The notes below the pieces were generated by a model. That model saw nothing but the letters and a program-made list of their open reading frames with translations. It did no database searches and was not told the DNA's origin. 64,000 nt of DNA from Escherichia coli (GTDB lineage Bacteria > Pseudomonadota > Gammaproteobacteria > Enterobacterales > Enterobacteriaceae): NCBI RefSeq assembly GCF_011045215.1, contig NZ_CP049201.1; one strand, given 5' to 3'. Shown here one piece after another: positions 48,783 through 48,988 of the stretch; position 1 is the first letter of the stretch; every line of letters begins with the position of its first letter. The translations under genes and the position numbers were made by a program.

Positions 48783-48988
48783 GAGATAAAGTCTTCAGTC
48801 TGATTTAAATAAGCGTTTATATTCAGTTAATTACAAACATTAATAACGAAGAGATGACAGAAAAATTTTCATTCTGTGACAGAGAAAAAGTAGCCGAAGA
48901 TGACGGTTTGTCACATTGAGTTGGCAGGATGTTTGATTAAAAACATAACAGGAAGAAAAATGCCCCGCTTACGCAGGGCATCCATTTA

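Follow-up and report, generated by a model that had tools for sequence, protein, structure and literature searches.

The glmS–pstS gap of an Escherichia coli chromosome and its apparently unoccupied attTn7 site

The chromosomal site downstream of glmS is the classic landing site of the transposon Tn7. In the definition and numbering of Mitra et al. (PMC2918618), the TnsD-binding sequence of attTn7 extends from +23 to +58, and the position of insertion is set only by this TnsD site and not by the sequence at the insertion point itself. An empty attTn7 within the glmS terminator is already known; it is a textbook feature and the majority state. The gap between glmS and pstS is also a known locus of long polar fimbriae (lpf) genes, described as O island 154, lpfO113 or lpfB1 (PMC2608844, PMC6033998). 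Escherichia coli W and strain 1EC213 carry lpfABCD-O113 between pstS and glmS, and O157:H7 has the lpf2 operon in the same place.

Here, we compare these systems with the glmS–pstS gap of one E. coli chromosome, using a window of 64 kb, by which we mean the whole stretch of DNA that was analysed. Judged from its sequence, the locus is almost certainly an ordinary attTn7 that is unoccupied, on an E. coli chromosome whose glmS–pstS gap is of the short, K-12 type, and we found no sequence evidence that speaks against this explanation. The features of the locus are listed in Table 1.

Table 1. Features of the glmS–pstS locus, in window coordinates
Feature	Position	Strand, extent or numbering	Basis or remark
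glmS, glutamine--fructose-6-phosphate transaminase	48989-50818	(-)	609-aa ORF; TIGR01135 equivalog, 898 bits, full length
TnsD-binding sequence of attTn7 (+23 to +58), predicted	48989-49024	(-)	final 11 glmS codons plus stop codon
Rho-independent terminator hairpin of glmS, predicted	48958-48983	(-)	fold, terminator scan, K-12 identity
Tn7 insertion point, pentamer CCCGC, duplicated on insertion	48964-48968	attTn7 -2 to +2, centre 48966	mini-Tn7 junctions
Short-allele-specific segment	48786-48988	~203 bp	lpf-strain matches stop at query position 105-110
glmS–pstS intergenic region, short K-12-type allele	48676-48988	313 bp, pstS start codon to glmS stop codon	K-12 alignment
Pho box 1 of pstS promoter, CTGTCATAAAACTGTCAT	48764-48781	(-)	exact match to consensus CTGTCATAWAWCTGTCAY
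Pho box 2 of pstS promoter, CTTACATATAACTGTCAC	48742-48759	(-)	two mismatches to consensus; 11-bp register with box 1
pstS, phosphate ABC transporter substrate-binding protein	47635-48675	(-)	346-aa ORF; NF008171 PstS equivalog, 744 bits, full length

The glmS–pstS gap and its attachment site

The glmS and pstS genes have glmU and pstC as their outer neighbours, and the glmS stop codon is the TAA at 48991-48989 on the minus strand; the annotation of an identical stretch in NZ_CP110978.1 also bears the glmS label. A preliminary description of this DNA had put the distance from glmS to pstS at about 310 bp, with no transposon-sized insertion, and had proposed an alignment with the K-12 gap as a check. 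That alignment bears out both statements: the gap of MG1655 is likewise 313 bp long (3911526-3911838, between the pstS start at 3911525 and the glmS stop at 3911839), and the two sequences are colinear base for base, with five substitutions and no indels (window/K-12: 48761 T/A, 48762 T/A, 48818 T/G, 48828 T/C and 48917 T/G). The stretch from 48600 to 49100 is matched at 100% in three complete E. coli genomes. A 54-aa ORF on the plus strand (48900-49064), antisense to the end of glmS, is absent from the K-12 annotation and was dismissed as a mechanical ORF. An Rfam scan of 47500-51200, with E values up to 1, returned no credible known structured RNA; two sub-threshold matches to microRNA families, which scored 27 and 20 bits where the gathering score is 70, were taken as chance.

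Positions 48918-49069 are identical to K-12 without exception, and this segment takes in the TnsD site with the stop codon, and the terminator hairpin with its CCCGC pentamer. The 36-bp TnsD-binding sequence, TTACTCAACCGTAACCGATTTTGCCAGGTTACGCGG, thus lies intact at the 3′ end of the glmS coding sequence, at the same 313-bp distance from pstS as in K-12. The only differences from the K-12 site are the five gap substitutions, none of which falls inside the att site or less than 45 bp from the insertion point.

The insertion point was read from two real occupied sites, the mini-Tn7 of the K-12 derivative NZ_CP010444.1 and the natural Tn7 of 1EC213 (NZ_CP061101.1). With a slash marking each junction, the mini-Tn7 boundaries read ...AAAAATGCCCCGC/TGTGGGCGGACAAAATAG... 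and ...TTATTGTCCGCCCACA/CCCGCTTACGCAGGGCATCCATTTATTACTC..., also given as ...ATGCCCCGC/TGTGGGCGG... and ...CCGCCCACA/CCCGCTTACGCAGGGCAT..., and they define a 5-bp target duplication, CCCGC. The natural element carries tnsABCDE and an intI2-dfrA1-sat2 integron and is flanked by the duplicated target AGCCC; the sequence downstream of glmS in 1EC213 differs from the K-12 type and belongs to the lpf allele. Both occupied sites have the same glmS 3′ end as the window, an insertion centre 23 bp from the glmS stop and the tnsA end towards glmS, and the end beside the integron, distal to glmS, is Tn7L according to the 1EC213 annotation. That a different pentamer in 1EC213 is still centred 23 bp from the stop fits the report that the TnsD site sets the position (PMC2918618).

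Anchored by the target duplications of the occupied sites, the published numbering places position 0 at 48966 and the stop codon at +23 to +25. The insertion point is therefore intergenic, some 20-25 bp past the glmS stop with its centre at 23 bp, and the 3′ arm of the glmS terminator hairpin begins with the CCCGC pentamer. Given its sequence identity to the site studied in K-12, the attachment site would be expected to support orientation-specific transposition by TnsABC+D.

Occupancy of the gap in the window and across Escherichia coli

A single copy of CCCGC occurs between 48900 and 49000, at 48964, uninterrupted and with its K-12 neighbours on either side, which means that the site is empty. 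The occupied sites of 1EC213 and NZ_CP010444.1 have terminal repeats (TGTGGGCGGACA...), their target pentamer is duplicated and tnsABCDE lies beside glmS; in the window, neither terminal inverted repeats nor TnsB-binding repeats flank a duplicated target, and tns genes or pieces of them are absent from the vicinity of glmS. The Tn7 terminal 12-mer, allowing up to two mismatches, was matched five times in the 64 kb against 5.3 expected, with no match in the gap. Searches of the window by blastn-short with both 200-bp ends of the natural Tn7, taken from the real 1EC213 element, gave only 10-12-mers at E ≥ 0.59, and tblastn of the 1EC213 TnsA-E proteins against the whole window gave short chance matches with a best E value of 0.19, none of them in 48676-48988. 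The finding of Tn7 ends or tnsABCDE-like fragments had been named in advance as the result that would overturn the preliminary reading of an empty Tn7 or Tn7-like landing site; with one CCCGC, an intact TnsD site and no Tn7 ends, that reading stands.

More broadly, the glmS–pstS gap of the window contains no Tn7-like, IS or lpf DNA, and no chaperone-usher fimbrial ORF is present within its 313 bp. The emptiness of the gap with respect to lpf is the sole addition that we make to the earlier reading.

We surveyed the state of the gap in 5426 complete E. coli genomes. In 102 of them (1.9%, laboratory constructs included) the 3′ end of glmS adjoins a Tn7R end, and 118 have a Tn7L end anywhere in the genome; an empty attTn7 is accordingly the norm, seen in ~98% of complete E. 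coli genomes. The short K-12-type gap was at least 80% covered in 3062 of the 5426 (~56%), and 501 bp that comprise the gap with the adjoining ends of the two genes reached the same coverage in 2995. In a further ~2360 genomes the match was confined to the first 105-110 bp beside pstS. These partial matches are explained by the lpf occupant: an lpf operon lies in the glmS–pstS gap of ~43% of complete E. coli genomes, and an lpfO113-type island was at least 80% covered in 1967 of the 5426.

The lpf islands (lpfO113 or lpfB1, and lpf2, which is O island 154 of O157:H7) occupy the same chromosomal gap as the segment found here, and share with the window both glmS and the pstS-proximal 105-110 bp that hold the Pho boxes. 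They differ in that the window lacks the fimbrial operon and has instead a 203-bp K-12-type segment with the K-12 terminator. In lpf-carrying strains the lpfABCD island (compared here over L002 6108-11531; ~5.4 kb in E. coli W) replaces the ~203 bp next to glmS, terminator included. The alignment with lpf strains diverges directly outside the glmS stop codon, and these strains have a different GC hairpin and T tract as terminator. The short-allele-specific segment is therefore an alternative to the island, and not a mere flank of it.

The pstS promoter sits in the part of the gap that is common to the short and the lpf alleles, and its two Pho boxes (Table 1) compare with a chance expectation of 0.02 such matches in the window. 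Two of the substitutions relative to K-12 (48761-48762, TT in place of AA) fall in the 4-nt linker between the boxes, which on the pstS-sense strand reads AAAC in the window and ATTC in K-12; the linker is still A/T-rich, and is the same in the genomes that match at 100%. Three more Pho-box-like half sites of the form (C)TGTCA(C/T) were seen by eye on the minus strand at 48856-48911, upstream of the known Pho boxes and within the short-allele-specific segment: CTGTCAT, CTGTCAC 22 bp away, and TGTCAC (TGTGACA on the pstS-sense strand).

An empty site is compatible with, and cannot show, a past element that was later lost by recombination with an empty allele. The site could in principle be secondarily empty, the lineage having lost Tn7, another glmS-targeting element or an lpf island, with the short gap as a derived deletion. 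The locus is indeed highly polymorphic (~2360 of 5422 genomes are without the short-allele segment and 1967 have an lpfO113-type operon), nearby loci are mosaic (an island at 36584-44015, a deletion of dgo at 14443), and a replacement by homologous recombination via glmS and pstS would be scarless. However, there is no footprint of such an event: the window has one CCCGC, no indel relative to K-12 and no lpf or Tn7 remnants. Moreover, Escherichia albertii and a second Escherichia representative, ~93% identical to the window, have the same hairpin and a short-type gap, which suggests that the short glmS–pstS allele is ancestral to the genus Escherichia. We therefore consider secondary loss very unlikely, and retain the reading of an ordinary unoccupied site.

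Two variants at the same spot were seen in other genomes. In E. coli NCTC9699 the hairpin edge is occupied by an IS3-family insertion sequence (L003 ~20290-21620, corresponding to window ~48960-48968), so the spot is also taken by elements other than Tn7. In E. albertii NBRC 107761 (L009 2329-2518, corresponding to window 48903-48960) the hairpin is kept, and in place of the U tract there are ~190 bp of additional sequence, which include a REP-like repeat that resembles window positions 16729-16832 and 45567-45601.

The glmS terminator hairpin

The preliminary description had reported a stem-loop after the glmS stop, and the minus-strand string is identical to the one that it quoted. Seven nucleotides past the stop codon, the minus strand reads AUGCCCUGC-GUAA-GCGGGGCAU, followed by UUUUUCUUCC. 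The core arms lie at 48981-48973 and 48968-48960, on either side of a GUAA loop (48972-48969), and a U-rich tract follows at ~48959-48950. The stem has nine base pairs, one of which is a G.U pair; on the opposite strand this pair becomes a C.A mismatch, which gives the hairpin the polarity of the glmS transcript. A 71-nt stretch containing the hairpin folds at -24.1 kcal/mol, compared with -13.0 ± 2.7 kcal/mol in dinucleotide shuffles (z = -4.04), and none of 200 shuffles folded as well.

A consensus scan of 48500-49200 for terminators scored the hairpin with 11 pairs, six of them GC, and a 4-nt loop, and found no other terminator-like site. A count of one is by itself not above chance, given that shuffles yield 0.6 on average. 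What speaks for a terminator is therefore the position 7 nt past the stop and the identity to K-12, where the glmS terminator matches the hairpin sequence exactly. With a GC-rich hairpin directly before a U tract, on the sense strand and just past the stop codon, the structure has the form of an intrinsic terminator, and would be predicted to act as the glmS transcription terminator in this strain. For K-12, Gay et al. (1986, cited in PMC2918618) reportedly placed glmS transcript 3′ ends at the U tract in vivo.

The least probable of the alternatives, that the stem-loop is a chance palindrome or a REP-like repeat rather than the glmS terminator and that the site is not a usable attTn7, draws on the unremarkable scan count but is highly improbable in the face of the fold z-score, the placement of the hairpin 7 nt from the stop with the U tract next to it, a G.U pair that is found only on the glmS-sense strand, the insertion of Tn7 at exactly the CCCGC pentamer in K-12, the listing of Gay et al. 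among the references of PMC2918618, and the unrelated GC hairpin and T tract at the same position in lpf-carrying strains, which argue that a terminator is needed there.

By extension from established work on K-12 and Tn7 (PMC2918618), TnsD would bind its site at the end of glmS and recruit TnsC, and TnsAB would then be directed to link the two ends of Tn7 to staggered positions around 48966, the right end on the glmS side. As no element is inserted, the hairpin is whole, and in this empty state it would, by extension from work on K-12, end glmUS transcription upstream of the PhoB-controlled pstS promoter, thereby shielding this PhoB-dependent promoter, which lies ~180-220 bp further on. Both TnsD binding and termination may be expected in this strain because the sequence is identical to that studied experimentally in K-12.

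The 22-nt glmS hairpin, ATGCCCCGCTTACGCAGGGCAT, recurs exactly, in terminator orientation and with a T run, downstream of unrelated genes in three unrelated genomes, with flanks that are unrelated to E. coli (L013 4867-4888; L014 4145-4166; L012 7138-7159). In Vibrio rhodolitus a 445-aa ORF, a homologue of window positions 4582-5897, ends 16 nt before the copy, in a Coriobacteriia MAG the copy follows the putative 3′ end of a tRNA gene, and the third copy is in a Bacteroidetes MAG. Another of the six genome-collection matches, a 270-bp Alkalicoccobacillus contig, is 98% identical to E. coli throughout and was rejected as contamination. We consider it very unlikely that these copies represent a small mobile or recurrently re-created terminator module, as opposed to a coincidence of low-information palindromes, and such a module would have no bearing on the Tn7 site being empty.

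Neighbouring differences from K-12 and significance of the empty site

The preliminary description had also placed a horizontally acquired island at yieH–phoU, and the window does contain 7.4 kb without a K-12 counterpart between these genes (36584-44015), in place of the K-12 genes cbrB-cbrC-yieK-yieL-bglHBFG (L007 35435-44866). The island encodes two large ORFs (808 and 835 aa) without a Pfam match and a pentapeptide-repeat ORF. It is common to 627 of the 5426 genomes, in which the annotation calls these genes type III effectors (espY4 in O157:H7). Its best full-length match reaches only 97.2% identity, whereas the nearby glmS–pstS stretch is matched at 100%. Between cbrA and yidX, at a junction at 14443, the window lacks the entire D-galactonate operon dgoTDAKR (4.75 kb in K-12, L007 8545-13297), and the same junction is present in 378 of the 5426 complete E. 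coli genomes.

Overall, the scientific weight of an empty attTn7 is small, as this is the state of ~98% of complete E. coli genomes. In practical terms, mini-Tn7 constructs would be expected to insert into this strain at their usual position and to duplicate CCCGC (48964-48968). A second use is in typing: the strain is lpf-negative at glmS–pstS and has an espY4-type island replacing bgl, which helps to place it among the lineages of E. coli.
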